A DNA stretch of 64,000 nt from a virus (IMGVR_UViG_3300022555_003200); one strand, 5' to 3'. Positions 1,945 through 55,626 are shown, numbered from the stretch's first letter. The notes: generated from the letters alone by a model not told the origin. Translations and numbers: made by a program.

Positions 1945-4900
1945 ATGGATATCCTAAAGTTTCTACGCCAAAAGTTAGTTCCTGAACGCACCCCAGTCAC
2001 CCCGCCAGAAGTAAAGAAAGTAGCAACCTCCAAAGAAGACGCGGATATGTGGAAGGCGTATGGGATATCCAACGAAGCTCTCCGCCAGGTCATCTCAGAC
2101 CAAAACCTCATCATCTACGAACGCAGCTGCCTTCGTGGGGACACTAGAATTTCCCTCCTAGACGGAACTACTCCAACAATCAAAGAGATGGCTGAGAACA
2201 ACCAAGACTATGTTGGGAAGTACGTTCTTTCAGTTAATCCAACCACGCTTGAAATCGAGCCAGATAAGATATTAGCCGCAACAAAAACTCGCCTAAATGC
2301 AGAGATGATTCGCGTTCATCTAGACAATGAGAATCACATTGACTGCACACCAGACCATAAGTTTATGCTTAGGAATGGGACCTTTAAGGAAGCAAAGGAC
2401 TTGGCTCAAGGGGAAAGTTTGATGCCTTTGTACCTAAAGAAACCAGCAAAAGTTTTAAAAGATTATTTAATGGTTTACAAGCCGAAGGGTGGGTGGACAT
2501 ACGTTCATTGGCTAGTTGATAAGTTTTTCAACGGCAAACGCCCTAAGGGAGTGATAGTGCACCACAAGGGAGACGATCGGTGCAAATATGATAAGGTAAA
2601 CAATGACCCATCTTGTCTGGAAAGGATGTCAAAGTCCGACCACAACAAGATACATTTTAACGAAGTAAGTCACAAGGAGCATTTACAGAAACTTCATAGG
2701 AAGATGGTCAAGCCCAGAGAAACCAGAGAATGTTTGGGCGGATGCGGTCTTACAAAGACAGTTATTGTTACAAGCGACTGGAGGGTGTGCAGAGACTGTG
2801 CTAACAAACTAAACGCACAGAAGCCATTTTGGCTGCAAAAACGTAAAGATGCACAACAGGCTTTATGGAACAGTCCAGAATACAGGGAACAGCAAACAAA
2901 GGCTATTTGGAATATCAAAAGATATCGTAGACCCCTCCTGACTAAAACGTGTGTTGTGTGCGGATGTGAATTTACGACCAAAGTGGGGAATCGCCAGTCG
3001 TGCAGTAAGCGCGATTGTGTAATAGAGCTTATCAGACGAAAAACTACTGGGGTTAAGAAAACCAAGTCGCTCAAAAACCACAAAGTTTTATTTGTTGAGA
3101 CGCTTACTGTTCGTGAAGATGTTTACGATATTTCAACAGAACGTAACCACAATTTTCCAACGGTTGCCGGAGTATTTGTTCACAACTCGGTTTACCAGGT
3201 AGTCGATCGCTCACTTAACCACGCCCTCATGTGCTTCACAGGTGACACCAAGGTCGCCCTGCTTGACGGCAGGGATGTGTCAATGGAGCAGTTGGCTAAA
3301 GAGTATGAACAGGGTAAAGTAAACCATGTTTATTCGATAGACCTAGACGGTAAGAAGATCGTTCGTAGCCCGATTAAACGAGCTTGGAAGACTGGGACTA
3401 AGGAGATCTTGAAGGTTGTCTTGGACAACGGCGAAGAGATCCGCTGCACACTAGACCATAGGTTCATGCTTAGGGACGGATCATACAAGGAAGCCCAGCA
3501 GCTTAAGCCAGATGACTCCCTTATGCCTCTATACCGGTATGTGGATAAGGAGTACCGCAAGGGGTATTGGCGGCTCTACGACCCATTTAACGCACGCCAG
3601 GCAGAGCCAAAGCACTATAGCGTCCAGTACACATACTTCAACAAGAACCGCGGTACAGGTAATCATGTCCACCACTCTTACACAAATTTCAAAGACTCCG
3701 CATTAAATAAACTAGATGACTCTCCGGAGAACCACTCCATCCTCTCCAAAAAAGACCACAGTGCAGTTCACACGAAGCCACAGGAAGCCAGGTTCGCCCA
3801 GGCTATTCGTACCATTCAGAACCATTATGGGGTTAGCCGCGAAGAAGCCATTAGGATCTATGAGTTCAATCACAAGAAAGTTCCTTGCCCTGTATGCACG
3901 GATCTGATGGATCCACGTCGTAAGACGTGTTCGTATGAGTGTAGGAACTCCGCAATGAGAGGCAGGGCTCCTCACAATAAGGGTAAGATCGGGCAGACGG
4001 CTTGGAACAAAGGGCTGACAAAAGAAGACATTAGAGTTGCTAAGTATGCGACTAAGCCGCGTTGGAACGTCGGGCTCACAAAAGAGACAGACGAGCGCGT
4101 CATGCATATGGCGGAGTCTAAGGTTGGTGGGACACCGTGGAATAAGGGGATTAGGAATCACAAGGTAAAAGAAGTTGTAAGGCTAAACGCTGTGGCAGAC
4201 GTCTATGATCTAACAATAGAGCCATTCCACAATTTTGCTTTGTCCGCCGGAGTGTTTGTTCACAATAGCGCGGCGTGTGTCGCATTTGCAGACACAGCTT
4301 GTCAGCGCTCCCCACTACACGGTTCAACTGTGTGGGTAACTTCTGACAATAAAGAATATCGCTACCAGCTGGAGAAGATGCTGGACGTGATCAACATCGA
4401 GGAAGTCATATACGATTGGGCCTGGACTACAGCAGCTTTCGGTGATCTCTTTGTAGAGTGTTTTGGAGAACCAGGCGTAGGACTCATATGCGTCAACGAT
4501 GATAACCATCCAATCAACGTCAGCAGGGTAGATCACAACGGAAGATTAGTGGGGTTTTTCCAGACTCCACTCGGCTACGCAACTACAGACACCCGTAAGT
4601 TACTAGCACCGTGGGACCATGTACACTTCAGACTCTTAGGAGCCAAGAAGCGGAGGCCACTATACGCCGATCAACAATATTGTATAGCTGGAAATACACG
4701 AATAAATCTTCTAGATAATACAACCCCAACCATAAAAGAAATCACAGAGAACCTCGCTTTCTATAAAGGAAAATCTGTACTAACAATCAATCCGCAGACC
4801 CTTAATCTTGAGGTTGGGCAAATTGTAGATGCAAAGAAAACCCGCCTAGATGCTCAACTGGTACGTGTTCATCTTGATAATGAACAACATATTGACTGCA

Positions 4901-7900
4901 CACCAGATCATAAGTTTATGCTTAGGGATGGTAGCTACAAGGAAGCGCAGGATCTTTTCCAGGGAGAGAGCCTAATGCCGTTGTATACTCGAGAAGATTC
5001 CAGAAAGAGATTTAAGGATTACCAGCAGGTATATAACCCAGCAGATGGAGAATGGCATTTTATTCATAGGCTGGTTGCCAAGCAAACATATGGTAAGACT
5101 CCAAAAGGCAGTATTGTCCACCACTGGGGGGATGAACGAAAGTTGTTTGATAAGAAGAATAATGATCCCAAGTGTTTAGAGGTTGTTACTAAGGCTAAGC
5201 ACATGGAGATACATGCAAATAACTTAGATGAGCTTAGGCAGGATCCCGAATGGAAAGAGGCCCATAGAAAGTCAGTTAAGGATGGGGTCGCACGAAGTAA
5301 AGCTGAGAATCCTGAGCTGTGGGATGAGCACGGCAAGAAAATTAGTCAGAAAGCGGTAGAACGATTTGAAGACCCTGCTTATAGAGATAAGTTTAACCGG
5401 GCTATGGAAGAGCGAAATGAAAATACTGAGTGGAAAAGAAACATTGGAGAAGGCTCGAAGAAGGTTTGGAGCGATAAAGAGTATCACGATAAGCAGGCAA
5501 AAAGGACGAAAGAAGGTCAACAAAAAGCATACTCAGACCCAGCATTTAGACACCATTGTACAAACCTAATAAAAGAAGCTGTAAATGAGATAAAAGAACT
5601 AACCTGCAAATATTGTGGAAAGAAATGGGTAGGAAAATATCCAGGATTAGCAGGGCATGCCAAGGGATGCAAGGTGAGCCCCAAGAATTTAGAGAAGGCC
5701 GCTGTTCTAAACCACAAGGTAGTCATAGTTGAGTGGCTAACTGAAAGAGAGGATACTTACGATATAGAAATTTCAGGCAACCACAATTTTCCAGTAACAG
5801 CGGGTGTGTTTATTTCCAACAGCGAGTTCAGGACGGTGAGTATAATGACCCCAGATGCACGCCGATTAACCTCCAAGTACGGCACAAGCATCCTCGCAGA
5901 CGCCCTCCCAATTTGGAAACGCCTTAGGCTCGCAGAAGACTCTATCATGATGGCGCGAATTATGAAAAGTCCTCAACGCTTCCTCTTCAAAGTGACGATC
6001 CCAGAAGATAATGCAAACGCGGAAGCTGTAGCTAACCTGGTAGACCAGTACATGACTGAGATCAAACGTTGCTTGGTTGGTGACACCAAAATAGCTTTGT
6101 TGAACAATACTAATCCTACAATTAAGGAAATGGCTGAAAATAAGGAGAAGTATGTTGGAAAATACGTATACAGTGTTAATCCAATAACGAAGGCTATTGA
6201 GCCTGACAAGATTGTAGATGTCGCTAAGACAGTTGTTGATGCTACTGTTATGAGAGTTCATTTAGACAATGAAGAGTATGTCGAATGCACTCCAGACCAC
6301 AGGTTTATGATGAGGGACGGGAGCTTCAAAGAAGCCAAGGACTTGGTTCAGGGTGATAGCCTGATGCCATTGTATACTAAGGTAAGCAGCGAAGGCAGAC
6401 GGCAGGTTCTTAACCCCAAGACTGGAAAATTCCCGTTGGTGTATAAGCTTGTTTCGGAATGTATAGACGGGAAAACTCCTAAAGATTGTGTAGTTCACCA
6501 CGAAAACGAAAACAAGCTGGACGATGACCCGTCTAATCTGAAGATTGTTACCAAGCATGACCACATGTCTATTCATCACTTATTCACGGATAAGATTATT
6601 GCTAAGCGAGGGTCTATACAAGCGTGGAATAAAGGATTGACTAAAGAAACCGATGAAAGAGTTGCAAAGTATGCTAAAAGTGTTTCGGAGACCCAACAGG
6701 TACAATATGACTTAGGTTTTAGAAAAAGTTGGAATGACGGATTAACTAAAGAAACTGACCGTCGAATGCAAGTAATATCGGATAAAGTTAAACAGAGTAA
6801 TCCGATGGGTCGCCCCGAGGTTCGTGCCAAAGCGTCTAAGTCAAAGATGGGTAACCACAATAAACCAGTAGCACCTAAAGAGACTCGGGTTTGTGGGTGC
6901 GGTTGTGGTGAAACATTCGAATGTAAGATAAGTTCAGATCAAGCGTATGTTCAATACCATCACAGGAAGAATAAGAAAAATAGTCAGGATCATAATCGTA
7001 AGATTGCATTATCACATATTGGAAAGCCCGGGCATAAACAAACATTTGAATCGAGGAAGAAAATAAGTTTGGGCGGAAAAATTAGTTGGGCTAAGCGGAA
7101 ACACACAGTTCTCAACCATAAAGTAATAAGTGTAGAAGTTCTGCCGTATACAGTTGATACGTATGATATTTCTACAGAGAAGAACCACAACTTTGCATTG
7201 AGTTGTGGTATTTTTGTCCATAACTCTAGAGCACTCAATCTCGACTCCAACAACCCAGGCTACTTGGATCGCTTCAACGCTATGGCAAGTTGTGAGGATT
7301 TGATATTCCCGGTATGGGGAGACAGCAACAACCTCACGGTAGAGACCCTAGGTGGAGATACGGATATTAAGTGGATCGCTGACGTAGATAAACTTGAGAA
7401 TCAGTTGATTACCGCTCTAAAAGTCCCAAAGCAGCTCCTCGCGGGATTCTCAGGTGAAGGCGGTGGGGGCTTCGAAGGCGGTACAGCCTTAGAGCGTATG
7501 GACATCCGGTTCGCCAGACAAGCACGTAGAGTACAGAGAAGTTTGATCAACGGGCTCACCAGGATGGCACAGATACACCTTGCTTGGCAAGGCCTCGATC
7601 CTGACCTAGACCTTTTCCAGATCCACATGTCGCAATCTTCCAGTGCAGAAGAGGTAGAGCTCCAGGACGCACTAGGGAAGTCTGTGGATGCCACCCGCGG
7701 TTTGTACGACATGCTTCAGGATATGGTTGGAGTAGACCTCAACAAGAAAGAGCTCCTTACGTACTTCAATGAGAAGTTCTTTAAGCTGTCAGACCTTGAC
7801 TTAGACACCTTGTACCTGAAGGGTGATGCTAAGGCCATACAGGGAGACCATAGAGATGTTCCTGTACCTGGTGTAGAAGAGCCAGCAGCTGAAGGTGGAG

Positions 7901-8064
7901 AAGAGGAGCAAGAGGCAACCAACCCATTTAGAGAAAGTAAGGAGTCGCTACGAATCAGTGACTTGAGCTCGCCCCTTCCAAACCACAAGACAGGACAGTT
8001 GTGGGAGAGCCAGTGGAAGGATGCTCCCATTAACGTTACCTCCCTGAACGAAGGGACAAAGTAG
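1945..8064 (+). CDS. gp20: T4 gp20-like portal protein precursor with four inteins (2039 aa; 576 aa spliced)
   Basis: Exteins (61+15+138+83+279 aa) join to a portal-like protein (WAWTTAAFGDLFVE, HFRL, RLAEDSIMMARI, ERMDIRFARQARRVQ, LKVPK); position at start of head module. Confidence 0.85.
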   Translation: MDILKFLRQKLVPERTPVTPPEVKKVATSKEDADMWKAYGISNEALRQVISDQNLIIYERSCLRGDTRISLLDGTTPTIKEMAENNQDYVGKYVLSVNPTTLEIEPDKILAATKTRLNAEMIRVHLDNENHIDCTPDHKFMLRNGTFKEAKDLAQGESLMPLYLKKPAKVLKDYLMVYKPKGGWTYVHWLVDKFFNGKRPKGVIVHHKGDDRCKYDKVNNDPSCLERMSKSDHNKIHFNEVSHKEHLQKLHRKMVKPRETRECLGGCGLTKTVIVTSDWRVCRDCANKLNAQKPFWLQKRKDAQQALWNSPEYREQQTKAIWNIKRYRRPLLTKTCVVCGCEFTTKVGNRQSCSKRDCVIELIRRKTTGVKKTKSLKNHKVLFVETLTVREDVYDISTERNHNFPTVAGVFVHNSVYQVVDRSLNHALMCFTGDTKVALLDGRDVSMEQLAKEYEQGKVNHVYSIDLDGKKIVRSPIKRAWKTGTKEILKVVLDNGEEIRCTLDHRFMLRDGSYKEAQQLKPDDSLMPLYRYVDKEYRKGYWRLYDPFNARQAEPKHYSVQYTYFNKNRGTGNHVHHSYTNFKDSALNKLDDSPENHSILSKKDHSAVHTKPQEARFAQAIRTIQNHYGVSREEAIRIYEFNHKKVPCPVCTDLMDPRRKTCSYECRNSAMRGRAPHNKGKIGQTAWNKGLTKEDIRVAKYATKPRWNVGLTKETDERVMHMAESKVGGTPWNKGIRNHKVKEVVRLNAVADVYDLTIEPFHNFALSAGVFVHNSAACVAFADTACQRSPLHGSTVWVTSDNKEYRYQLEKMLDVINIEEVIYDWAWTTAAFGDLFVECFGEPGVGLICVNDDNHPINVSRVDHNGRLVGFFQTPLGYATTDTRKLLAPWDHVHFRLLGAKKRRPLYADQQYCIAGNTRINLLDNTTPTIKEITENLAFYKGKSVLTINPQTLNLEVGQIVDAKKTRLDAQLVRVHLDNEQHIDCTPDHKFMLRDGSYKEAQDLFQGESLMPLYTREDSRKRFKDYQQVYNPADGEWHFIHRLVAKQTYGKTPKGSIVHHWGDERKLFDKKNNDPKCLEVVTKAKHMEIHANNLDELRQDPEWKEAHRKSVKDGVARSKAENPELWDEHGKKISQKAVERFEDPAYRDKFNRAMEERNENTEWKRNIGEGSKKVWSDKEYHDKQAKRTKEGQQKAYSDPAFRHHCTNLIKEAVNEIKELTCKYCGKKWVGKYPGLAGHAKGCKVSPKNLEKAAVLNHKVVIVEWLTEREDTYDIEISGNHNFPVTAGVFISNSEFRTVSIMTPDARRLTSKYGTSILADALPIWKRLRLAEDSIMMARIMKSPQRFLFKVTIPEDNANAEAVANLVDQYMTEIKRCLVGDTKIALLNNTNPTIKEMAENKEKYVGKYVYSVNPITKAIEPDKIVDVAKTVVDATVMRVHLDNEEYVECTPDHRFMMRDGSFKEAKDLVQGDSLMPLYTKVSSEGRRQVLNPKTGKFPLVYKLVSECIDGKTPKDCVVHHENENKLDDDPSNLKIVTKHDHMSIHHLFTDKIIAKRGSIQAWNKGLTKETDERVAKYAKSVSETQQVQYDLGFRKSWNDGLTKETDRRMQVISDKVKQSNPMGRPEVRAKASKSKMGNHNKPVAPKETRVCGCGCGETFECKISSDQAYVQYHHRKNKKNSQDHNRKIALSHIGKPGHKQTFESRKKISLGGKISWAKRKHTVLNHKVISVEVLPYTVDTYDISTEKNHNFALSCGIFVHNSRALNLDSNNPGYLDRFNAMASCEDLIFPVWGDSNNLTVETLGGDTDIKWIADVDKLENQLITALKVPKQLLAGFSGEGGGGFEGGTALERMDIRFARQARRVQRSLINGLTRMAQIHLAWQGLDPDLDLFQIHMSQSSSAEEVELQDALGKSVDATRGLYDMLQDMVGVDLNKKELLTYFNEKFFKLSDLDLDTLYLKGDAKAIQGDHRDVPVPGVEEPAAEGGEEEQEATNPFRESKESLRISDLSSPLPNHKTGQLWESQWKDAPINVTSLNEGTK
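2128..3186 (+). mobile_element. intein 1 (353 aa) with HNH endonuclease
   Basis: CLRGDT start, CTPDHKF block B, VYDISTERNHNF...VHN then Ser; VHHK..NND HNH core. Confidence 0.93.
3232..4266 (+). mobile_element. intein 2 (345 aa) with HNH-like endonuclease
   Basis: CFTGDT start, CTLDHRF, VYDLTIEPFHNF...VHN then Ser; WNKGLTK repeats. Confidence 0.93.
4681..5820 (+). mobile_element. intein 3 (380 aa) with HNH endonuclease, ends Ser-Asn
   Basis: CIAGNT start, CTPDHKF, TYDIEISGNHNF...ISN then Ser. Confidence 0.92.
6070..7224 (+). mobile_element. intein 4 (385 aa) with HNH endonuclease
   Basis: CLVGDT start, CTPDHRF, TYDISTEKNHNF...VHN then Ser; VVHHENENKLDD HNH core. Confidence 0.93.
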
Positions 8065-8293: not shown

Positions 8294-9991
8294 ATGCCTA
8301 ATCACGTAACGAACATACTCACCATAGAAGGCCCTACCAAGAGAGTAAAAGAGATCTTTGCTGCCATCTCTCCTGTGGACCCAACGCTTGCCAGTAAGCC
8401 ACTTCCGGCTCGCAAGGCTGGTGTGGTATTTGCTGCGGCCTCTGAAGAAGAGGTGGCCCGCAGAAAAGTAGACATCCACGAGATTGACTTCGGCAAGATC
8501 ATCCCGGCTCCTAAGACGAAGGCATATAGGAACCAGGGATGGTACAACTGGAACATTGAGCATTGGGACACTAAGTGGAATGCCTACAGCCAAGAGAAGG
8601 TAGATGACCATACGATGCGGTTTGATACTGCTTGGGGGGCTCCTTACGCTATCTTTAGAGCACTTAGCGAGAAGTTCCCGGATGTCACTATCAAAGTTAG
8701 GTATGCTGACGAGGACTTTGGCCAGAACTGCGGGGAGCTCGAGTATCGTGGAGGCAGTGAGACCTACAACGCTGGCATAGAGGAAGGAAGCAAGGAAGCC
8801 TATGAGCTAGCGTTTGATGTTAAGGGGTATGGCGCGGATGAGTATGTATACGACGAGAAGAAGGGTACTTATGTCTACAGAGACAACGCTGAAGATAATG
8901 AGCCTGTCCACAACGAGTCAGTTAAGAACGTAGGCAGGATGACTGCGGACCTAAAGAGTATCTTTGAGGCTGATCATGTGTTCAAAGCGGCTAGCGCTGA
9001 GGATGTGGCCAAGCGCAGGGAAGATCTGGACCGGAAGACGGGGGAAGTAAGCAAGTCTTTCTACGACGCTGAGTACAAGAGGAACGTGGACGTTTTACTA
9101 TACAAGCGCCGGTCGGACTGGTCAGACTCAGATGCTCCTAAGTGGACAGTTGAGTTCGACAATGGCTACCACGGCGGGTATTACGTAAGCACAATCTTTG
9201 GGAAGGATGAGAGGATTGGACATTACCGCAGGGTGGGCTGTCGCGGGGTGGGTCTAGTACTGCACGGTGGGGATGAGAACAGGTCAGCAATAGGCGCACA
9301 GTGCATGGATACGATCATGGACTGGATCGCGGCTACGATACATGCTCGCGGCGAGAAGATCGAAGAGGCGGGTGTGATGCCTAACGCAGGGGATGAGAAT
9401 CTGATCAGCCACGAGACTCTTAGCGGAACGGACTACAAGCATCAGTCAGTCAACAAGCCAGTATTTAAGGCTGCTAACCAGGAAGAGCTTGCAAGGCGTG
9501 GGATCAAGCAGCCTAAGTTCCAAAATGGTCAGCGGGTTGTCTACCACACTTCAATACGCGGCATTGATGATTACTTGGATGGGCGCATTGGAACGATAGC
9601 GATGTATCGCCCTGTTGAAGACTCAACAGGCGGGGTGCTTTACCGTTACGAAGTTAAGTTCGTGCACCCATTTATTTTCTTTAGGTGGACTACTGAGGAT
9701 TACCTGACTCCTGTGACGAATGAAGCGGCTGAGGAAGTGTTCAAAGCAGCAAGTCCAGAAGATGTAGCTAAGCGTCCTGAGTCAAAGATTCAGGTTGGGG
9801 ACACAGCAATGTACATGGGCGGAAATCCATCAAGCAAGTACTACCGCAGGTTTTGCAAAGTTACTGACATGCGCACAAATACTTACGGGACTAACTGGGT
9901 AGTGCACGATGTCAGGGCCGACATCAAGTTCCAGGATGGTAAGGGACTTAGGAATGTGGATGTTGATCACTTGGAGAAGATTTTTCAATGA
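8294..9991 (+). CDS. FKAA-tagged polyprotein: YubB/DUF1281-like ferredoxin-fold domain plus two SH3-like modules
   Basis: MPNHVTN...WNIEHWDTKWNAY...FDTAW; 4 tag copies. Confidence 0.75.
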   Translation: MPNHVTNILTIEGPTKRVKEIFAAISPVDPTLASKPLPARKAGVVFAAASEEEVARRKVDIHEIDFGKIIPAPKTKAYRNQGWYNWNIEHWDTKWNAYSQEKVDDHTMRFDTAWGAPYAIFRALSEKFPDVTIKVRYADEDFGQNCGELEYRGGSETYNAGIEEGSKEAYELAFDVKGYGADEYVYDEKKGTYVYRDNAEDNEPVHNESVKNVGRMTADLKSIFEADHVFKAASAEDVAKRREDLDRKTGEVSKSFYDAEYKRNVDVLLYKRRSDWSDSDAPKWTVEFDNGYHGGYYVSTIFGKDERIGHYRRVGCRGVGLVLHGGDENRSAIGAQCMDTIMDWIAATIHARGEKIEEAGVMPNAGDENLISHETLSGTDYKHQSVNKPVFKAANQEELARRGIKQPKFQNGQRVVYHTSIRGIDDYLDGRIGTIAMYRPVEDSTGGVLYRYEVKFVHPFIFFRWTTEDYLTPVTNEAAEEVFKAASPEDVAKRPESKIQVGDTAMYMGGNPSSKYYRRFCKVTDMRTNTYGTNWVVHDVRADIKFQDGKGLRNVDVDHLEKIFQ

Positions 9992-10341
9992 GCCTGGAAA
10001 AAGACATTACATCACTCAAGAAGATCATGGAAGCTGACAACGTCTTCAAGGCTGCTGGTGGTGATGAACTAACCAGGCGCATGGGACCTATAGCCGCTGA
10101 GAAGAAGGCCGCTATTGCCGAGGGCAAGGTATGGTGCAATGACTGCATGAAGGTTCCTAGAGCGCTTATGGTTGAGTTTGGTATAGCTAATCAGAAGGTA
10201 CGGCTTAAAGACGATGGCAAGTCCATCGCTAGCTTGGGAGAGGTGAACGTTCAGGAGCCTAACTACATTGTCTGCGTTGACTGCTACCAGGGTAATTTAG
10301 TGAATGAGAAGCAAATAATAGACAAGCTGAATGATTGGTGA
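9988..10341 (+). CDS. leader + FKAA-tagged Zn-ribbon protein
   Basis: MSLEKDITSLKKIMEADNVFKAAG; WCNDC...CVDC. Confidence 0.8.
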   Translation: MSLEKDITSLKKIMEADNVFKAAGGDELTRRMGPIAAEKKAAIAEGKVWCNDCMKVPRALMVEFGIANQKVRLKDDGKSIASLGEVNVQEPNYIVCVDCYQGNLVNEKQIIDKLNDW

Positions 10342-12762: not shown

Positions 12763-13455
12763 ATGAATAACTACGGGTACATATATGAAACGATAAATAG
12801 TGCGACGGGGATGCTTTATGTCGGTAAGCATAAGGGCGCTTTTGAGTCTTGGTATCACGGAGGGGGCACGCGTATAAACCGTGCAATTAAAAAATATGGT
12901 AAGAAAGCTTTTACAACAAGGCCAATTGCTTATGCAAGAACTAAGGATGAGCTTAACGAGCTTGAAGTAGAGCACATAGCCAAGTACAAAGCTACGTATG
13001 GGGCAGACAAGCTCTACAACATATCTGAGGGTGGCGACGGAGGCGGCGGCCTTACTCGTCACTCTAGTGATTGTGTGTGCTGTTTTTGCATGGGTAAGCG
13101 TGGAGAGTTGAGTGGGTCTAACTGTCCTAGGTATGGCAAAACGTATCGATATGTTCGTAACAAGGCTACTGGTGAAAGACGTATGATTGCTCCTGAGATG
13201 CTTAGTGAATACATTATTGCCGGCTGGGTTAGATGCTCTACTGGGAGTAGGGTTGGCAAGAATAATGGTATGTACGGTAGACGGCATACAGAGAAAGCTA
13301 GGAAGGGAATGAAGGAGAATCGGCCAGACCAGTCAGGCAAAAGCAATGGTATGTTTGGGGTTCACCGGTATGGAAGCGCCAATCCGATGTTTGGTAAGAG
13401 TGACTCAGCTAAACGTGGCTGGGAGACTAGAAGAAAGAACATGGTGACTAAATGA
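12763..13455 (+). CDS. free-standing GIY-YIG homing endonuclease with NUMOD3-like repeats
   Basis: YGYIYETIN...YVGKH (GIY-YIG); GKNNGMYGRRHT and GKSNGMFG repeats. Confidence 0.85.
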   Translation: MNNYGYIYETINSATGMLYVGKHKGAFESWYHGGGTRINRAIKKYGKKAFTTRPIAYARTKDELNELEVEHIAKYKATYGADKLYNISEGGDGGGGLTRHSSDCVCCFCMGKRGELSGSNCPRYGKTYRYVRNKATGERRMIAPEMLSEYIIAGWVRCSTGSRVGKNNGMYGRRHTEKARKGMKENRPDQSGKSNGMFGVHRYGSANPMFGKSDSAKRGWETRRKNMVTK

Positions 13456-21449: not shown

Positions 21450-22057
21450 GCTTCGAAAAAGATATCACAGAAATCAAGAAGATGGTTGAGGCGGAAGAGC
21501 CGGTGTTCAAGGCTGCTAGCCCTGAGCAGGTTGCCAAGAGGGTGGATGATATAGTGGCACAGCAGGCGCAGCAGCTGTACGCAAAGGCCGAGGAGGCTCG
21601 GCCTGGTATAATCGCGGAGCTTAGAGCAAAGCTTGGTAATAGTGAGGCACTCGTTCAGACGGCGATCGCTTACGCGGACACACAGCACATTGATACACTT
21701 CTTGGTATTGAGCCGGAAGAGATTCGAATGGCTGATCTTACGTCGTGGAATGACAGTCTTGGCGCCAAGATCCGGGATCTTGATTGGCCTGGAGTATGGA
21801 CGGATAAAAACACGTTCTTGAAGCAGGCTGAGATGGTTGGTGGATACAACGTATTTGATGAAGATATCGCTAAGGGTCTCGTTCAGGATTTTGGAGACAG
21901 GCAGTATCGATTGGCCCGTGAAGGCTCTGTAGCAGTTTACATCAGGCCAGTTAAGAAAGTAGAGATGGGGTTGTTGAAAGGTTCAGAAGGACCCAATGCA
22001 TTCGGGGAAGATGAGCACGATTTAGATGGAAATGAATTAAGACTTTGGTGGGACTAG
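21446..22057 (+). CDS. leader + FKAA-tagged protein, C-terminus paralogous to that of ORF 32700
   Basis: MVEAEEPVFKAAS; WPGVWTD...YRLARE. Confidence 0.8.
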   Translation: MSFEKDITEIKKMVEAEEPVFKAASPEQVAKRVDDIVAQQAQQLYAKAEEARPGIIAELRAKLGNSEALVQTAIAYADTQHIDTLLGIEPEEIRMADLTSWNDSLGAKIRDLDWPGVWTDKNTFLKQAEMVGGYNVFDEDIAKGLVQDFGDRQYRLAREGSVAVYIRPVKKVEMGLLKGSEGPNAFGEDEHDLDGNELRLWWD

Positions 22058-22065
22058 GGGGCTGT

Positions 22066-22716
22066 ATGGCTGGTGGTGTTTACAAGCGAACTAAGGCACA
22101 CGGTAGGGCAATTTCAAAAGCTAGGCAGGGGTCTATCAATTGGAGTCGTGGGCTTACAAAGGAGATTGATACCCGTGTTGCTAACAACGCTAAGTCAATA
22201 CAAAAATCAATAAAGGAGCTTTGGAAAGACCCTGCTTACGTAGCTAAGAGGAACGCAGGTTACGCTAAGTTTAGGAAAGAGCGCGGAGCAGAGGTTGCGG
22301 CTAAGATTTCCAGAACGTTGACAGGGAGAAAGACAGGACCACAGTCTAAAGAGCTAATTGAGAAGCGTATGCGTGGAGTATTAAAAGCTCTTTGCAAGCA
22401 TCCGAATAAGTTTGAAGCAAACTCAATGAACTACGTAAATACTATATACGGCGGTAACGTTAGATTTACAGGGGACGGTTCGTTGATCATAAACGGCAAA
22501 TCAGCAGACGCCGTGTTGGACGGAACAAACATAGTGTTTCTTTTTAACGGTGTTTACTGGCACTTAGAGCGATTTGGGTATGCAGTAACTGAAGAAGCTA
22601 AGCGTATTGTGGAAGCCAAAGAGTCAACGCCGTTTCTGCAAGCCGGATACAAAGTTATTTTCGTCTGGGAAGACGAGTTGAATAGGGTAATTAAAAAGTG
22701 TAACAAAAAAGTGTAG
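22066..22716 (+). CDS. free-standing PD-(D/E)xK (Vsr/DUF559-like) homing endonuclease with NUMOD-like N-terminus
   Basis: WSRGLTKEIDTRV repeat; KSADAV...FNGVYWH...GYKVIFVWEDE. Confidence 0.7.
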   Translation: MAGGVYKRTKAHGRAISKARQGSINWSRGLTKEIDTRVANNAKSIQKSIKELWKDPAYVAKRNAGYAKFRKERGAEVAAKISRTLTGRKTGPQSKELIEKRMRGVLKALCKHPNKFEANSMNYVNTIYGGNVRFTGDGSLIINGKSADAVLDGTNIVFLFNGVYWHLERFGYAVTEEAKRIVEAKESTPFLQAGYKVIFVWEDELNRVIKKCNKKV

Positions 22717-22774: not shown

Positions 22775-23641
22775 ATGGCAAGAGGCAAGGTTAAGTGGTC
22801 CGAATAGAGCCACGTACTTCGCTATATGCTGGAATAACTTCAAAAGATAGGAGTCCTAATATGGAAAAATCTTCTATACACGGAGTCAATCAGCAGGCAA
22901 AGGCAGTAGACTTGGCTTGGTTAGCGGGTCTGGTAGATGGGGAAGGTACTATAGGCTTGTATAAGTATATGTGTGGGAAGAGCTTAGTATGTAAGCCCAG
23001 ATTCCAGATTTGCACAACCAGTCCAAGATTGGTTAAACGTGTATTAGAAATCTTAGAACCGCTTGGTTTTAAGTTATACGTCAACCAGGCCGAACAACGG
23101 CCACAGTGGAAAGAGCGTTATACAATCGTAGCTTGTAAGCACGAAACGTGCGAACAAATTATACTAATGCTCTATGACTATCTTGTGGAAAAGAAACCAC
23201 AAGCAGATTTGTTGCTTGGATATCTTAGGTCAAGACATGGTAAGCTTGGCAATGGAAAAGGGTATTCAGAAAAAGAATTAGCAACAGTCGAAGCTCTAAA
23301 AGAAACTAACTTTAGAGGTGTCAATTTTCCACGACTGCCAGAGTCCTCAGAGACTACACGCGAAGAGCTGTTATGAGCAGCCAAGATATAGTCCGATCTG
23401 CATAGCGATATGCAGCTAACAAAATGTCAGCGGTCCCAAGGGTTACGGATTCATCACGGGTAACGACGGTAAAGATGTTTTTTGCCACTTTAGCAGCATT
23501 TTGCAAGATAAGGGATACAAGACACTTGACGAAGGTCAAGAGGTTGAGTTTGACATCGTTGCTGGAGAGAAGGGGGACCAGTCCGCGAACGTTCGTAAGA
23601 TTGTTCCGCTTAATGAAGTAAAAGCTGTGGATAGTAAGTAA
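22775..23641 (+). CDS. csp: cold-shock protein (CspA family, 79 aa), join(22775..22799,23427..23641)
   Basis: Spliced: [53 protein letters not shown]..., RNP1 KGYGFI, RNP2 VFCHF, SD AAGGAG; exons total 240 nt in frame. Confidence 0.9.
22800..23426 (+). mobile_element. group I intron (627 nt) in csp
   Basis: Exon ends in U, intron ends in G; IGS GCCAC 22809-13; P ATGCTGGAA 22826; Q AATCAGCAGG 22888; R TCAGAGACTA 23347; S AAGATATAGTCC 23383; P9 with GCGA tetraloop. Confidence 0.92.
22861..23376 (+). CDS. intron-encoded LAGLIDADG homing endonuclease
   Basis: [15 protein letters not shown]; PRFQICTTS; YLVEKKPQA. Confidence 0.88.
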   Translation: MEKSSIHGVNQQAKAVDLAWLAGLVDGEGTIGLYKYMCGKSLVCKPRFQICTTSPRLVKRVLEILEPLGFKLYVNQAEQRPQWKERYTIVACKHETCEQIILMLYDYLVEKKPQADLLLGYLRSRHGKLGNGKGYSEKELATVEALKETNFRGVNFPRLPESSETTREELL

Positions 23642-23725: not shown

Positions 23726-24280
23726 ATGAATACAAAAGTTTGTACTGTTTGCGGCACTGAAAAGAAAACGTCTTATTTTTACCCAAAGAAAACTGGAAAG
23801 TTTAAAGTGTCGGCAGCATGCAAGGAATGTGATCTGTTAGCGCACAAAAAGTATTACAAGGATAACCGTGACATGGTGCTGAGCAAGGTCAGGGAGCGCA
23901 GCAGAGGCAGCAAAAAGGAAAAGGCAGTTTACGACCGTAATTACAATGTCGTAAATAACACAAGGCTTTTGCGACAGAAGGAAAACACAAGGCTTAAAAG
24001 AAGTTACAAAATAACGCTTGAGCAATATTTTGACATGTTATTTAAGCAAAGCTTTCGATGCCTTGGGTGTGGTAAGCACCAGTCTGATATTGAGTGGGCG
24101 CTATGCATAGACCATGATCATAAGTGCTGTTCCGGTGAAAGATCATGTGGTAAGTGCATACGAGGACTGTTATGCATTCATTGTAACCACGCAATAGGAA
24201 GTGCGTACGATGACGTTGGAACGCTAAAAAACTTGGTTTTATATCTAGAGTCGTTCGAACAACAAGGTAAACCAGCTTAG
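23726..24280 (+). CDS. endonuclease VII-family His-Cys nuclease (probable free-standing homing endonuclease)
   Basis: YKITLEQY...CLGC...LCIDHDH...IRGLLCIHCNHAIG. Confidence 0.85.
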   Translation: MNTKVCTVCGTEKKTSYFYPKKTGKFKVSAACKECDLLAHKKYYKDNRDMVLSKVRERSRGSKKEKAVYDRNYNVVNNTRLLRQKENTRLKRSYKITLEQYFDMLFKQSFRCLGCGKHQSDIEWALCIDHDHKCCSGERSCGKCIRGLLCIHCNHAIGSAYDDVGTLKNLVLYLESFEQQGKPA

Positions 24281-26124: not shown

Positions 26125-26352
26125 ATGAGTTTTGAGAATGATATTACGCACATCAAGAAGATGATCGAGAAGCTTCAGGCTGAGACTGAAACGATGCCTA
26201 CAGAAGCCCCGGTAATTACCCCGGAAGCTCCTACGCAGCGCCCGGATAAGCCAAGCACTCCTATTCGCAAGATGCCGGGGATTTCCCCAAAGCCGAAGGC
26301 TCTTAATAGGGATACGGAATTATTTTTAGCTAAGCGAGGTATAACTAGGTAA
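26125..26352 (+). CDS. leader-bearing Pro-rich small protein
   Basis: MSFENDITHIKKMIE; PTEAP...PKPKA. Confidence 0.7.
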   Translation: MSFENDITHIKKMIEKLQAETETMPTEAPVITPEAPTQRPDKPSTPIRKMPGISPKPKALNRDTELFLAKRGITR

Positions 26353-27065
26353 TGAGTTACGGTTATGTTTACAAGACCACCAACTTACTTAACGACAGAG
26401 TGTATATAGGACAGAAGAAAGGTCAATTTGACTCTAACTACTTCGGTAGTGGGTTAATTATTAGGAGTGCTTTGAGTAAGGAAGGGTCTAGTAACTTTAG
26501 CTTAGAAGTGTTGGCTTATGGGATGACACGTGACCAGCTCAACGAGCTTGAGATGAAGTTTATAGCTGACTACAGGGAGATGTTAGGTCGGGACACACTA
26601 TATAACATAACTGATGGCGGTGTTGGCGTACGCCGACCGTGTCCTGATTTGGTTAGGCAGAAAATACGAGCTAAGGTACATGCGCCAGACTGCACCTGTA
26701 TGAGTTGCAAGAACACAAGAAAAGAAAAGCATGGAGCTGACTGTTGTTGTGTTGGGTGTAGGAGTAGCCGCGGAGACAGTTTGAATCACAGAGAAGATTG
26801 TAAATGTATTGCGTGTGCACCTATTTACACTAAGAGAGAAGTAAGGACCTGCGTTTGTGGTTGCGGGGGAACGTTTGAGTGCAAGGTATCCTCTAGCAAG
26901 AGGTACATTTTTAACCACCACAAGAGGGGCAGCACTTCTTGGAACAAGGGTAGAACAGGTCTTCAGACATGCTGGAATAAGGGGCTGACCAAATATACGG
27001 ATGGCAGAGTTCTCAAAATGTCTAATAGTCTGACCGGGAAGAAGTATAAAAAGAGGGACTTATAA
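26352..27065 (+). CDS. free-standing GIY-YIG homing endonuclease with Cys-rich repeats
   Basis: YGYVYKTTN...YIGQ; three HxxDCxCxxC repeats; WNKGLTK. Confidence 0.85.
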   Translation: MSYGYVYKTTNLLNDRVYIGQKKGQFDSNYFGSGLIIRSALSKEGSSNFSLEVLAYGMTRDQLNELEMKFIADYREMLGRDTLYNITDGGVGVRRPCPDLVRQKIRAKVHAPDCTCMSCKNTRKEKHGADCCCVGCRSSRGDSLNHREDCKCIACAPIYTKREVRTCVCGCGGTFECKVSSSKRYIFNHHKRGSTSWNKGRTGLQTCWNKGLTKYTDGRVLKMSNSLTGKKYKKRDL

Positions 27066-39673: not shown

Positions 39674-41149
39674 ATGAGTAAAGAACTTAATAGCCTAGTC
39701 GAGTCGAGACTGGCTGCAATCCACTCTGAGCGCGACAGGCTTGCTAAGTCTTGGAGCCCCTACATTGGTTCCGTTAGGAACTACATGGGCAAACAAGGCA
39801 AGACCCTGACCGAGAACGACGAGCGCAACATTGCTCGTTGCTTAGAGAACGCTCTGTTGGAAAGCGGCGTACGCTCGAAGTCCTCGATCTTTGAAACAAC
39901 GGATTCATCTGCCATCAGCTTCCTCGGCATTCAGCTTCCTGTCATTTCCGCCCTGCTTCCCAGCCTCGTGCTGAACAAGCTTGCGGTTACTCAGGCGTTG
40001 GATCGTCGTTCTGGTGCAGTGTTTTTCATGGACGTGAAGTATGGTTCCACGAAGGGTTCTATCACGTCTGGTCAGACGATGATGAGCTCTCTCACGGGTC
40101 ACAACGCTTCTGTTGCTGGCCGTCAGTTCGCCTCTGTGAGAGTGTACTCTGAATCCTTCAGCGGCTCAACGTACCAGACTGTTTACACTCCGATCCAGCT
40201 CGGAACCGTGGTTATCACCAACGCAGCCGGTACTGAAACTCTTACCGACTATGCAACCCCGGGCGTGCTGGTTGCTACATCATCCCTCACGGGCGTGGTG
40301 TCAGGAACTGTAACGGCTGCTGGTGCTGTGTCGCTGTCCGGAGCAATGCCTGGTGGTGGTACGAACACGATCACGTACAACTACAACTGGCAGACTTTCA
40401 GCGGTTCGGCAACGAACACTGAGTCAGTTCCGGAAGTTAACATCGCAGTATCTTCTTCGACTATCACGGCCGAAGACTTCCCGCTCCGTGCATATTTCAC
40501 TCTTGGTGCAGCTATTGACCTTGAGAAAGCACATGGGCTGAACCTGGAAGATGAACTTGTGAAGTACCTCGGTGGCGAAGTGAAGTTCACGATGGACCAT
40601 CTTGGTATTGATCTAATGCTCCAGGCTGCACAGAACACCCTCCCGGGTCAGCTCGCCGCGGCCGCAACGACGGTTGGTGCTTATACCGCCGCTCCGACCA
40701 CCGGTGAAACTTGGGTGTGGAAGAAGTACCAGTTCATCGACTTCGTGGAAAAAGCGAACGTTGCCATTATCAACCAGACGTTGCGTGCTATTTGCAACTT
40801 CATGGTTGTTGGTAGCAACAGCGCACGTCTGATCCGTCAGCTTGAGCCGCATTTTAAGCCGGCTGCTGGGTTGGATTCGCTCGTTCCGACAGGTCCGTAT
40901 GAACTCGGCACGCTGGATGGACGCCTTGTTATCCATGATCCGCTCTTGGGAGTGAACCAGATCCTGTTCGGATTCAAGGGTGACAACTACTTGTTCGCCG
41001 GCTTGCTTTTTGCGCCGTACATTCCTTTGTTTGCGACACCGACACTGGTGACCGCCGACTTGAAGGCGCAGAAGGGCTTCTTGAGTTCAGCGGGTTACAA
41101 GGTTGTAAATCCTGGTATGTTCTGCTACGGCACGATCAGCATCACATAG
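39674..41149 (+). CDS. gp23: T4 gp23-like major capsid protein
   Basis: CLEN, IFE/TT putative maturation site, TQALDRRSGAVFFMDVKY, DLEKAHGLNLEDEL, FAPYIPL. Confidence 0.92.
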   Translation: MSKELNSLVESRLAAIHSERDRLAKSWSPYIGSVRNYMGKQGKTLTENDERNIARCLENALLESGVRSKSSIFETTDSSAISFLGIQLPVISALLPSLVLNKLAVTQALDRRSGAVFFMDVKYGSTKGSITSGQTMMSSLTGHNASVAGRQFASVRVYSESFSGSTYQTVYTPIQLGTVVITNAAGTETLTDYATPGVLVATSSLTGVVSGTVTAAGAVSLSGAMPGGGTNTITYNYNWQTFSGSATNTESVPEVNIAVSSSTITAEDFPLRAYFTLGAAIDLEKAHGLNLEDELVKYLGGEVKFTMDHLGIDLMLQAAQNTLPGQLAAAATTVGAYTAAPTTGETWVWKKYQFIDFVEKANVAIINQTLRAICNFMVVGSNSARLIRQLEPHFKPAAGLDSLVPTGPYELGTLDGRLVIHDPLLGVNQILFGFKGDNYLFAGLLFAPYIPLFATPTLVTADLKAQKGFLSSAGYKVVNPGMFCYGTISIT

Positions 41150-53973: not shown

Positions 53974-55626
53974 ATGAGCGTATTTTATGTGTCACCTGGA
54001 GTTTATACGGTTGAAAAGAATTTGAGTCAGTTGGTTCCGACTATTGCGACGACTTCCGCGGGTATTGCTTTCTATTCGACGAAGGGAAACACGAACGCTG
54101 TTACGCTGATGTCGAGCTCCCAGCAGTTCATTGCCGAATACGGAGAACCGACTCTTGGAAATCCCGGGCACTACTCTGCTTTGGCATACTTGCAGAACGG
54201 AAACCAGCTCTACTGCTACAGGGTTCAGAGCGGGGCGCTTTACGGCGGAGTAAACATTAAGTCATCAACAAGCATTCAATCGAACGCAGCAATATCCACT
54301 GGAGCGTCAACGACAGACTTTGTTGTGACGTCAGGTCAGGACAACTTATTCCAGATCTATGGCGTTAATCCTGGATCCTGGAATAACAATCTCAGCATCG
54401 GCATTGCTAATGTTAATGTCGGTCCGAACTTAAGCTCTAATGCGTTTGACATCCTTGTGTTCAACCTGATCAACGGCAGCTACGTGCAAGTTGAGAAGTG
54501 GACAGTTTCAAGGAAGCAGCAGCTAGACGGGTATGGAAGACAGCAGTACCTAGAGACGGCTATTAACGGCTACAGCCAGTACATTATGGTTGCCGATAGC
54601 TCTCTTGCAGACAGCGTCCTTCCTAAGGCTCAGACGTACGGGTACAACACAGGTGTTTGGACGGGTCTTAACATGGCGAGAGGAAGCAACGGAACGGATC
54701 TTATTGCCAACTACTCTTCAGGCCCTTACCAGCTTGGTTGGGATAAGTTTGCTAACCCAGACGACATTGACATCCGTGTGTTGATTGGTGCTGGCCAGAC
54801 GGCTACAGCGATTCAGGCGTACATTACAAATATCTGCGAGACGCGTAAGGATTGTATCGCGATATTGGACATCCCGGACACGATGACAACGTCAGTTACC
54901 TCGATGGTCAACTGGAGGACGGGTACACAGAACATCAACTCGTCATACGCGGCTCTATACGCTCCGATGGTCAAGGACTATGACTCGTTTAACGATACGA
55001 TCGTATTTCTTCCAGGTTCGGGGTACGTGGCGTCACAGTTCGCCTACAACGACTATGTGTCGGACGTGTGGTATGCGCCGGCCGGTCTTAACAGAGGCGT
55101 GCTGAACGTTCTTAGCGTGTGTAACAAGAACGGTGACAGGATGGTGTTCTCTCAGGGAGACAGGGACGCGCTGTATGCGGCCCAGATCAACCCGCTTCAG
55201 GTGTTCAGCGGTTCTGGAAACGTTATTTGGGGCCAGAAGACACTGACATCGCTGCCGTCGGCTCTTGACAGGGTTAATGTGAGAAGGCTTCTCATTATTC
55301 TTGAAAAGACTATGTCTGTTTCGCTTAAGCAGTTCGTATTCGAGCCAAACAACGACACAACGCGTTTCAGAATTACCGCAATGCTTGAGACGTTCCTTGA
55401 CCTGCTCTCCGCAAAGGGAGCTTTCCAGACTGAGCTAGGAGATAAGGGATACGTGGTTGTCTGTAACTCGACTAACAACACTCCCGCTATTATCGATCGT
55501 AATGAGCTTGTCGTAGACGTGTTTGTGAAGCCTTCTCGTGCAGCTGAGTTCCTCCAGCTGAATGTGATCGTGACACCTACTGGGACTTCATTCAATGAGT
55601 TGATTGCGCAAGGTACTATCCTGTAA
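53974..55626 (+). CDS. gp18: tail sheath protein
   Basis: SPGVYTVE, WYAPAGLNRG, INP..GQKTL...DRVNVRRL, FEPN. Confidence 0.95.
   Translation: MSVFYVSPGVYTVEKNLSQLVPTIATTSAGIAFYSTKGNTNAVTLMSSSQQFIAEYGEPTLGNPGHYSALAYLQNGNQLYCYRVQSGALYGGVNIKSSTSIQSNAAISTGASTTDFVVTSGQDNLFQIYGVNPGSWNNNLSIGIANVNVGPNLSSNAFDILVFNLINGSYVQVEKWTVSRKQQLDGYGRQQYLETAINGYSQYIMVADSSLADSVLPKAQTYGYNTGVWTGLNMARGSNGTDLIANYSSGPYQLGWDKFANPDDIDIRVLIGAGQTATAIQAYITNICETRKDCIAILDIPDTMTTSVTSMVNWRTGTQNINSSYAALYAPMVKDYDSFNDTIVFLPGSGYVASQFAYNDYVSDVWYAPAGLNRGVLNVLSVCNKNGDRMVFSQGDRDALYAAQINPLQVFSGSGNVIWGQKTLTSLPSALDRVNVRRLLIILEKTMSVSLKQFVFEPNNDTTRFRITAMLETFLDLLSAKGAFQTELGDKGYVVVCNSTNNTPAIIDRNELVVDVFVKPSRAAEFLQLNVIVTPTGTSFNELIAQGTIL

Follow-up and report, generated by a model that had tools for sequence, protein, structure and literature searches.

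How can a gene for an essential structural protein persist when nearly three-quarters of its reading frame encodes something other than that protein? The question is raised by a portal gene in IMGVR_UViG_3300022555_003200, a 64,000-nucleotide stretch of viral DNA (hereafter the window, meaning the whole stretch that was analyzed). The open reading frame (ORF; 1945-8064, plus strand) stays open for 2039 codons and would yield a precursor of 233.3 kDa. When we divided this ORF at signatures running from an initial Cys to a terminal Asn followed by Ser, four inserts emerged that together account for 1463 residues, or 71.8% of the ORF, and the remaining exteins (61, 15, 138, 83 and 279 residues) joined to a predicted mature portal of 576 residues and 64.8 kDa. 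An earlier reading of the sequence (the original prediction) had proposed 1463 intein residues out of 2039 (72%) and a 576-residue product, and our boundaries give identical figures. The answer that we favor is that an uncultured freshwater myophage with a genome of ~200 kb has here what is very probably its functional portal gene, colonized by four selfish, splicing-competent class 1 inteins that each carry an in-frame HNH homing endonuclease. The parts of the gene are as follows.

1945-8064, plus strand: portal precursor ORF, 2039 residues, identical to protein P0002
1945-2127, plus strand: extein 1, residues 1-61, aligning with residues 1-61 of intein-free portals
2128-3186, plus strand: intein 1, residues 62-414 (353 residues), at portal position 61; Cys1, CTPDH motif, His-Asn end, +1 Ser; Intein_splicing E 1.7e-24
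2476-2673, plus strand: putative HNH nuclease core of intein 1; HNH_3 24.5 bits (cut-off 24.8) and a match to the family HNH profile
3187-3231, plus strand: extein 2, residues 415-429 (15 residues), separating inteins 1 and 2
3232-4266, plus strand: intein 2, residues 430-774 (345 residues), at portal position 76, of a divergent lineage; Cys1, CTLDH motif, His-Asn end, +1 Ser; Intein_splicing E 2.2e-24
3613-3783, plus strand: HNH-like core of intein 2, recognized by the family profile and alignment only, with no Pfam match
4267-4680, plus strand: extein 3, residues 775-912; PHROG portal family phrog_1497, profile positions 129-215
4681-5820, plus strand: intein 3, residues 913-1292 (380 residues), at portal position 214; Cys1, CTPDH motif, Ser-Asn end, +1 Ser; Intein_splicing E 2.7e-20
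5032-5244, plus strand: putative HNH nuclease core of intein 3; HNH_3 E 5.6e-8, 32.7 bits
5821-6069, plus strand: extein 4, residues 1293-1375; Portal_T4 profile positions 170-233
6070-7224, plus strand: intein 4, residues 1376-1760 (385 residues), after residue 297 of the spliced product (profile position 295); Cys1, CTPDH motif, His-Asn end, +1 Ser; Intein_splicing E 3.9e-21
6412-6588, plus strand: putative HNH nuclease core of intein 4; HNH_3 29.3 bits, followed by two WN(K/D)GLTKETD repeats (direct repeat D2) and a Cys cluster
7225-8061, plus strand: extein 5 (the C-extein), residues 1761-2039; Portal_T4 profile positions 247-407, E 1.1e-15; 1644 homologs

The exteins identify the host gene as a portal. 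Once joined, they align colinearly from residue 1 to residue 576 with four intein-free homologs of 573-577 residues (P0014, P0021, P0026 and P0031) at 53-55% identity; the colinearity with gp20-like portals on which the original prediction had staked its case was thus found when the alignment was run. The portal identity itself is borne out by family profiles that match the extein pieces in colinear order: Pfam PF07230 (Portal_T4), with a cut-off of 22.9, matches the ORF as a whole at 82.6 bits, first at profile positions 170-233 and then at 247-407, and PHROG portal families 213 and 1497 behave likewise. Compared with solved structures, a profile of 24 intein-free homologs matches the portal of phage P1 (9ums, E 1e-28) and T4 gp20 (E 2e-10). 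The portal fold was modeled on the intein-free ortholog P0021, which is 55% identical to the spliced product of the window, and all Foldseek matches of this AlphaFold model are portals, with the P1 portal 9ums at the top (E 6e-12) and T4 gp20 also among them; the monomer model is of moderate quality (predicted local distance difference test score, pLDDT, 65), position 214 falls in a low-confidence loop, and the superpositions are loose. Elsewhere in the window are genes for a gp23-type major capsid protein (39674-41149, E 2e-30) and for a tail sheath protein (53974-55626). All genes share one strand, and the window is a myophage head and tail module.

The DNA of the gene has no match among 50,697 phage records, and a protein search of the same records returns distant portals only, at 24-32% identity (for example those of Microcystis phage Mel-JY01 and Bacillus SP-15). 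The matches in IMG/VR loci L001-L014 reach 27-28% identity over 117 residues only and were not used. Protein P0002, identical to the precursor, sits on a metagenome contig of 202,598 bp in ENA. Because no other portal homolog from this contig appears among the homolog matches, the interrupted gene is presumably the only portal gene of the phage and would have to splice.

All four inserts carry the hallmarks of splicing domains. Pfam PF14890 (Intein_splicing) matches each of them separately, at 73-87 bits against a cut-off of 35.8 and from profile position 1-3 to 153-155, with E values (1.7e-24 to 2.7e-20) far beyond chance; the Pfam search for Hint domains that had been proposed as a check therefore came out in favor of the inteins in every case. 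In each case a central insert separates the N-terminal from the C-terminal part of the match. A Cys start and a following Ser, as originally described, are seen in all four, as is a block-B motif (C-T-x-D-H, intein positions 72-77). Across 32 aligned inteins of the family, these four included, C1, T74, H77 and the terminal Asn are invariant. The C-termini read His-Asn, His-Asn, Ser-Asn and His-Asn, so that the terminal Asn and the +1 Ser are present in 4 of 4. In a structural model of intein 4 (pLDDT 80 overall and >94 in the splicing domain), the splicing domain resembles mini-inteins of solved structure (the Ssp and Npu DnaB and the Mtu RecA inteins), with template modeling scores of 0.55-0.63. 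By these sequence features the four inserts are class 1 inteins with the HINT fold, while splicing itself, like nuclease activity and homing, is inferred. A regular-expression scan of all six frames, a weak test, finds no further intein C-termini elsewhere in the window.

The central inserts encode putative HNH nucleases. Pfam PF13392 (HNH_3) exceeds its cut-off of 24.8 bits in intein 3 (32.7 bits) and intein 4 (29.3 bits) and falls just below it in intein 1 (24.5 bits), while a profile seeded from the HNH segment of intein 3 reaches all four inteins and 65 of the 89 family inteins described below. In the alignment of 32 inteins, both His residues of a VHH motif (H143 and H144) and the downstream H165 are invariant and H169 is nearly so; in the model of intein 4 the HNH residues are carried by two strands (140-144 and 157-161) and the helix that follows (162-179). 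The proposal that all four inteins have cores of HNH rather than LAGLIDADG type is thus sustained by the family profile and the alignment, with intein 2 as the weakest case. The HNH core is followed by Cys clusters, to which inteins 2 and 4 add two WN(K/V/D)GLTKE repeats. We considered the label NUMOD3 for the WNKGLTKE repeats and dropped it; Pfam names no domain for the repeats or for the Cys clusters.

Two genes outside the inteins share parts of these downstream modules. A 223-residue ORF in the window (22045-22716), which has no Pfam match, contains the stretch W-S-R-G-L-T-K-E-I-D-T-R-V, the repeat motif of inteins 2 and 4, and its product may be a free-standing relative of the DNA-binding module of the intein nucleases. 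In L015, the locus of the closest relative of the portal precursor (P0003), a gene for a 299-residue protein that resembles homing endonucleases (9138-10037) lies directly upstream of the portal gene and overlaps its start. The product is 43% identical over 98 residues to that of window 12763-13455 and has a 40-residue stretch in common with the Cys-cluster region of intein 4.

If the gene works as we propose, the 233-kDa precursor would be translated whole, and each intein would excise itself autocatalytically through attack by Cys1, transfer to the +1 Ser and cyclization of the terminal Asn. The product would be a T4-type portal of 576 residues (64.8 kDa), capable of forming a dodecamer, and the excised inteins would have masses of 41.0, 39.9, 44.0 and 43.7 kDa. 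The nucleases would benefit the inteins rather than the phage: when phages co-infect a cell, intein-free portal alleles would be cleaved and the intein copied into them during repair. All four inteins belong to a single portal-specific HNH-intein family that occupies ~31 positions in the portal clade. Because the insertion points sit in conserved portal motifs (YER-S.Y, H.LM-SAA, Y-SEFR and LKR-AR), the precursor should be inactive until it is spliced.

Several observations weigh against this picture. Intein 3 has Ser in place of the penultimate His, which normally assists Asn cyclization; some natural inteins splice without this His, but splicing of intein 3 could be slow. The HNH core of intein 2 lacks a match to any Pfam family. 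The support for splicing is indirect, coming from purifying selection and from an essential host gene of which no second copy was seen, and a second portal copy is in turn excluded only indirectly, as 64 kb of the ~203-kb contig were read. Finally, homing that is under way in the population now lacks support: the contigs examined contain no intein-less joints of this phage and hence no intein-free allele, although contigs drop rare variants and such alleles may still exist.

The wider portal family provides the context. An exhaustive, profile-free search with the C-extein retrieved 1644 homologs; lengths of 900-1500 residues are frequent among the best 150. With three hidden Markov models (built for intein-free portals, intein N-termini and intein C-termini) we located 89 complete inteins in the retrieved set. 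Inteins are carried by 47 of 95 full-length representatives of the clade: 48 have none, 24 have one, 17 two, 4 three and 2 four. The protein of the window is the sole representative with four nuclease-bearing inteins, and it is the longest of the retrieved relatives (2039 residues, followed by one of 1760). In the other four-intein portal, P0008, three of the inteins are nuclease-less minis and one is of LAGLIDADG type; P0004 has three inteins. These two multi-intein portals and P0003 have both the portal family and the intein family in common with the window.

The 89 inteins occupy ~31 portal positions, some of them on adjacent codons (profile positions 60/61, 69/70/71, 130/131 and 315/316/317). 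At such sites related inteins are found in different phages, with the +1 residue switched to Cys or Ser as needed, which suggests short-range shifts of the insertion point. In a tree of splicing domains, all inteins except a three-member LAGLIDADG clade (position 236) form one family with a support of 99. Site labels are clustered on this tree but require 44 changes, where 31 would be the minimum and shuffled labels need 71.9 on average; the family has therefore switched sites repeatedly. Loss of the nuclease is also common: 21 inteins are 210 residues or shorter, and nuclease-less mini-inteins occur at the same sites as full ones. In P0005 and P0006, two near-identical portals with two inteins each, the intein at position 87 has 361 residues in one and 181 in the other, which looks like a fresh and clean deletion of the HNH module that left the splicing domain intact. 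The picture for the family as a whole fits the cycle expected of homing elements, in which invasion is followed by loss of the nuclease and then by loss of the intein.

To what extent are the inteins of the window maintained? The closest relative, P0003, is a portal of 1319 residues from a 214,834-bp contig (locus L015) and has two inteins, an ortholog of intein 4 and a relative of intein 2. Between the window and this locus synonymous sites are saturated (synonymous divergence, pS, 0.8-1.0), which precludes a dN/dS ratio, and divergence is accordingly given as pS and its non-synonymous counterpart, pN. The values of pN are 0.10 for intein 4, 0.24 for intein 2 and 0.085-0.24 for the exteins. 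Because non-synonymous change is this low while synonymous sites are saturated, the inteins are, on the evidence of these comparisons, maintained by purifying selection. Intein 4 and the P0003 intein at the same site are 81% identical, and this identity runs through the HNH core, the downstream modules and the repeats, which points to selection on both splicing and the nuclease.

The comparison with P0003 also bears on the origin of the four inteins. In the tree, the sister of intein 4 is the P0003 intein at the same site, with a support of 99. Intein 2 groups with the first inteins of P0003 (position 71) and P0007 (position 69) with a support of 98, its own position being 76, and the extein text around these sites differs accordingly: the window has ...VDRSLNHALM, intein, SAAC; P0003 has ...VDRSL, intein, CHALMSAAC; and P0007 has ...VDR, intein, CLAHPLM. 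Three phages thus carry the lineage of intein 2 at three positions (69, 71 and 76) that span no more than seven codons. The common ancestor with P0003 probably had inteins 2 and 4 or forerunners of them, and we read the offset as a shift of one of these two inherited inteins over a few codons, in a single lineage. P0003 lacks inteins 1 and 3, and in our reading the two are later additions, gained by ordinary homing from other phages or by one of them seeding the other.

The second of these routes, copying of an intein to new sites within the same gene as opposed to separate homing events from other phages, deserves a closer look. In full-length BLAST comparisons the best match of intein 1 is intein 3 and vice versa (261 bits, compared with 254-257 bits for same-site inteins of other phages), tree likelihood rises by 39.6 when the two are forced together, exactly these two are absent from P0003, and related inteins on adjacent codons are known elsewhere in the family. 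However, pairwise identity among the four inteins is 29-46%, which would make any copying old; intein 4 has its strongly supported partner at the same site in P0003, and intein 2 belongs to another, divergent lineage. Moreover, at each of the four positions other phages also have an intein, so that ordinary homing can supply every one of them, and the tree is weakly resolved, with 39 of 85 branches open and approximately unbiased (AU) tests that do not discriminate (p 0.26 and 0.88). We regard within-gene multiplication as a possible account of the four inteins, but less likely than not.

The residues that flank empty sites add a further detail. In empty alleles Ser is the commonest +1 residue at three of the sites, and Ala is usual at the fourth (profile column 296). 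At this fourth site, after spliced residue 297, the +1 residue is Ser in the window and in P0003; therefore, either the Ser came with the intein or only alleles that already bore Ser could be invaded. Taking the shifts and the relationships among inteins together, it is possible, and we put it forward tentatively, that the portal-specific HNH-intein family acquires sites in two ways, through short-range shifts and through copies made inside the same gene. If this were true, the 576-residue portal would be the most densely targeted intein host, with ~31 sites, several of them on adjacent codons; to our knowledge no host is targeted more densely.

Could the inteins instead serve the phage? The original prediction suggested that four sequential splicing events pace head assembly, and in this reading they would be kept to time or limit the supply of mature portal and thereby pace the initiation of proheads. 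The portal initiates head assembly in T4-type phages, as textbooks describe, an unspliced precursor with four interruptions in conserved motifs should be inactive, and the inteins are under purifying selection. Conditional protein splicing, in addition, exists for some inteins (e.g. PMC7360933). However, any intein in an essential gene should be under purifying selection for splicing, which is uninformative about regulation, and the family does not conserve its inteins: their number and position vary among close relatives (P0003 has two), half of the clade (48 of 95 representatives) has none, and decayed, nuclease-less versions are common and coexist with empty sites, which is the pattern of a homing cycle. 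A sensor, for example a pair of redox-trap Cys residues at a junction, did not turn up, although no dedicated search was made. The pacing proposal has no support, and we consider a regulatory role very unlikely.

Least credible of all is an artefact or a decaying gene, that is, a chimeric assembly through intein repeats or a dying gene whose inteins do not splice, for although the four inteins share one similar DNA segment of ~84 nt and intein 3 ends in Ser-Asn instead of His-Asn, the identity of that segment (67-73%) is too low for an assembler to collapse, independent runs span every junction, the 2039 codons are open with all catalytic residues kept, and non-synonymous divergence from a diverged relative is low. 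The gene is present in freshwater and lake metagenome runs from several studies (2016-2020). Contigs from run X4, which represents another sample, span 8 of 8 junctions with 0-1 mismatch, and those from runs X6 and X9, from two further studies, jointly span 7 of 8. Because contigs from other lake metagenomes bridge all eight junctions, the gene is not a misassembly. The single RNA run (X10, a peat metatranscriptome) contains 6% of the sampled words and is uninformative on expression.

We return to the favored reading, a functional portal gene colonized by four HNH inteins, and compare it with systems already described. The original prediction set the gene against a background in which phage inteins typically reside in terminases, helicases, polymerases and ribonucleotide reductases (RNRs) and carry LAGLIDADG (DOD) nucleases; that background is incomplete, since portal inteins and in-frame HNH inteins had both been reported. 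Portal inteins are known from cluster C1 mycobacteriophages, with six cases (Kelley et al. 2016, PMC5050341), and from actinobacteriophages, for which the preprint of Gosselin et al. (10.1101/2025.01.02.630785) gives five separate groups. The likeness to the present gene lies in self-splicing inteins within a phage portal, reported to be polyphyletic with several independent site-diversification events. In these accounts we found no description of a single portal with multiple inteins, whereas here four HNH inteins occupy one T4-type portal of a freshwater myophage. In-frame HNH inteins are a rare, non-canonical type (Dalgaard et al. 1997, as cited in 10.1101/2025.01.02.630785), and the four inteins resemble them in having HNH instead of LAGLIDADG nested in the splicing domain. 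What differs here is the large portal-specific radiation (65 of 89 inteins) and the extra Cys clusters and WNKGLTKE repeats. The portal is not among the four types of host protein for which 10.1101/2025.01.02.630785 gives non-canonical nucleases; those named are DNA polymerase, minor capsid protein, terminase and thymidylate synthase.

With respect to number, the earlier maximum per protein was the four inteins of the Trichodesmium RNR, with four also in archaeal minichromosome maintenance (MCM) proteins and five in eukaryotic Prp8 (PMC10710043); the four inteins of the Trichodesmium erythraeum RNR go back to Liu, Yang and Meng 2003, as cited in PMC2874743 and PMC10710043. The RNR and MCM cases (PMC10710043; PMC10643990) share with ours the presence of four inteins in one polypeptide and of several sites in one conserved protein. 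In contrast, those hosts are cellular enzymes of replication and nucleotide metabolism, while the host here is a viral structural protein. Its four inteins all bear a nuclease and make up 72% of the ORF. The word "extreme", used of this gene in the original prediction, therefore holds for the intein count, which equals the earlier prokaryotic maximum, but the gene is not singular, as about half of the clade representatives carry one to four inteins. The gene is the extreme end of a pattern common in its portal family and a record-level case of a known phenomenon. In the literature that we found, this is the largest number of inteins reported for a viral or structural protein; we found no paper on multi-intein T4-type portals or on this HNH-intein family, within an incomplete coverage of the literature.

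The surroundings of the portal gene contain further homing-type genes and an unusual gene array. Free-standing genes for homing-type nucleases lie in the head module at 12763-13455, 22795-23376, 23726-24280 and 26352-27065; they comprise a PHROG "homing endonuclease" (E 1e-26, with weak GIY-YIG/NUMOD3 similarity), a weak LAGLIDADG ORF, an Endonuclease VII (E 7e-17) and a borderline GIY-YIG nuclease of SegE type. Judged by these genes and the four portal inteins, the phage is heavily colonized by homing elements. Immediately after the portal gene, 8294-9991 encodes a 565-residue protein with a ferredoxin-like DUF1281_C domain, whose counterpart in L015 (13960-15374) is two genes of 238 and 233 residues, a difference of fusion or splitting. 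Between 9988 and 22057, at least 12 consecutive post-portal genes share a leader of ~30 residues (MSLEKDIT.IKKMVEA.PVFKAA.PEE...), with gene starts at 9988, 11430, 11852, 12192, 13452, 13967, 14362, 14958, 16890, 17387, 20740, 21117 and 21446, and the same leader array is present in the related phage (L015 15823-23960). The hydrophobic-x-Glu that precedes Ala in the leader resembles the sites of the T4 prohead protease, and the leader may be a capsid-targeting or propeptide tag on internal head proteins.

What would such a gene mean for the phage and its relatives? With a dodecameric portal, 48 successful splicing events would be needed per virion. For annotation, the consequence is that portal genes of lake phages can run to three to four times the expected length. 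In haloarchaeal MCM, inteins with active nucleases that lie close together impede one another when homing into empty alleles (PMC10643990), and by analogy inteins 1 and 2, which lie 15 codons apart, may do the same; four active-looking nuclease-bearing inteins in one gene thus offer a test bed for interference between neighbors in homing. The pattern at the level of the family is the more interesting result, since one HNH-intein lineage is spread over ~31 sites in one small structural protein. With its shifts between adjacent codons and its fresh nuclease deletions, all within one family and one protein, this lineage could show how inteins acquire new sites.

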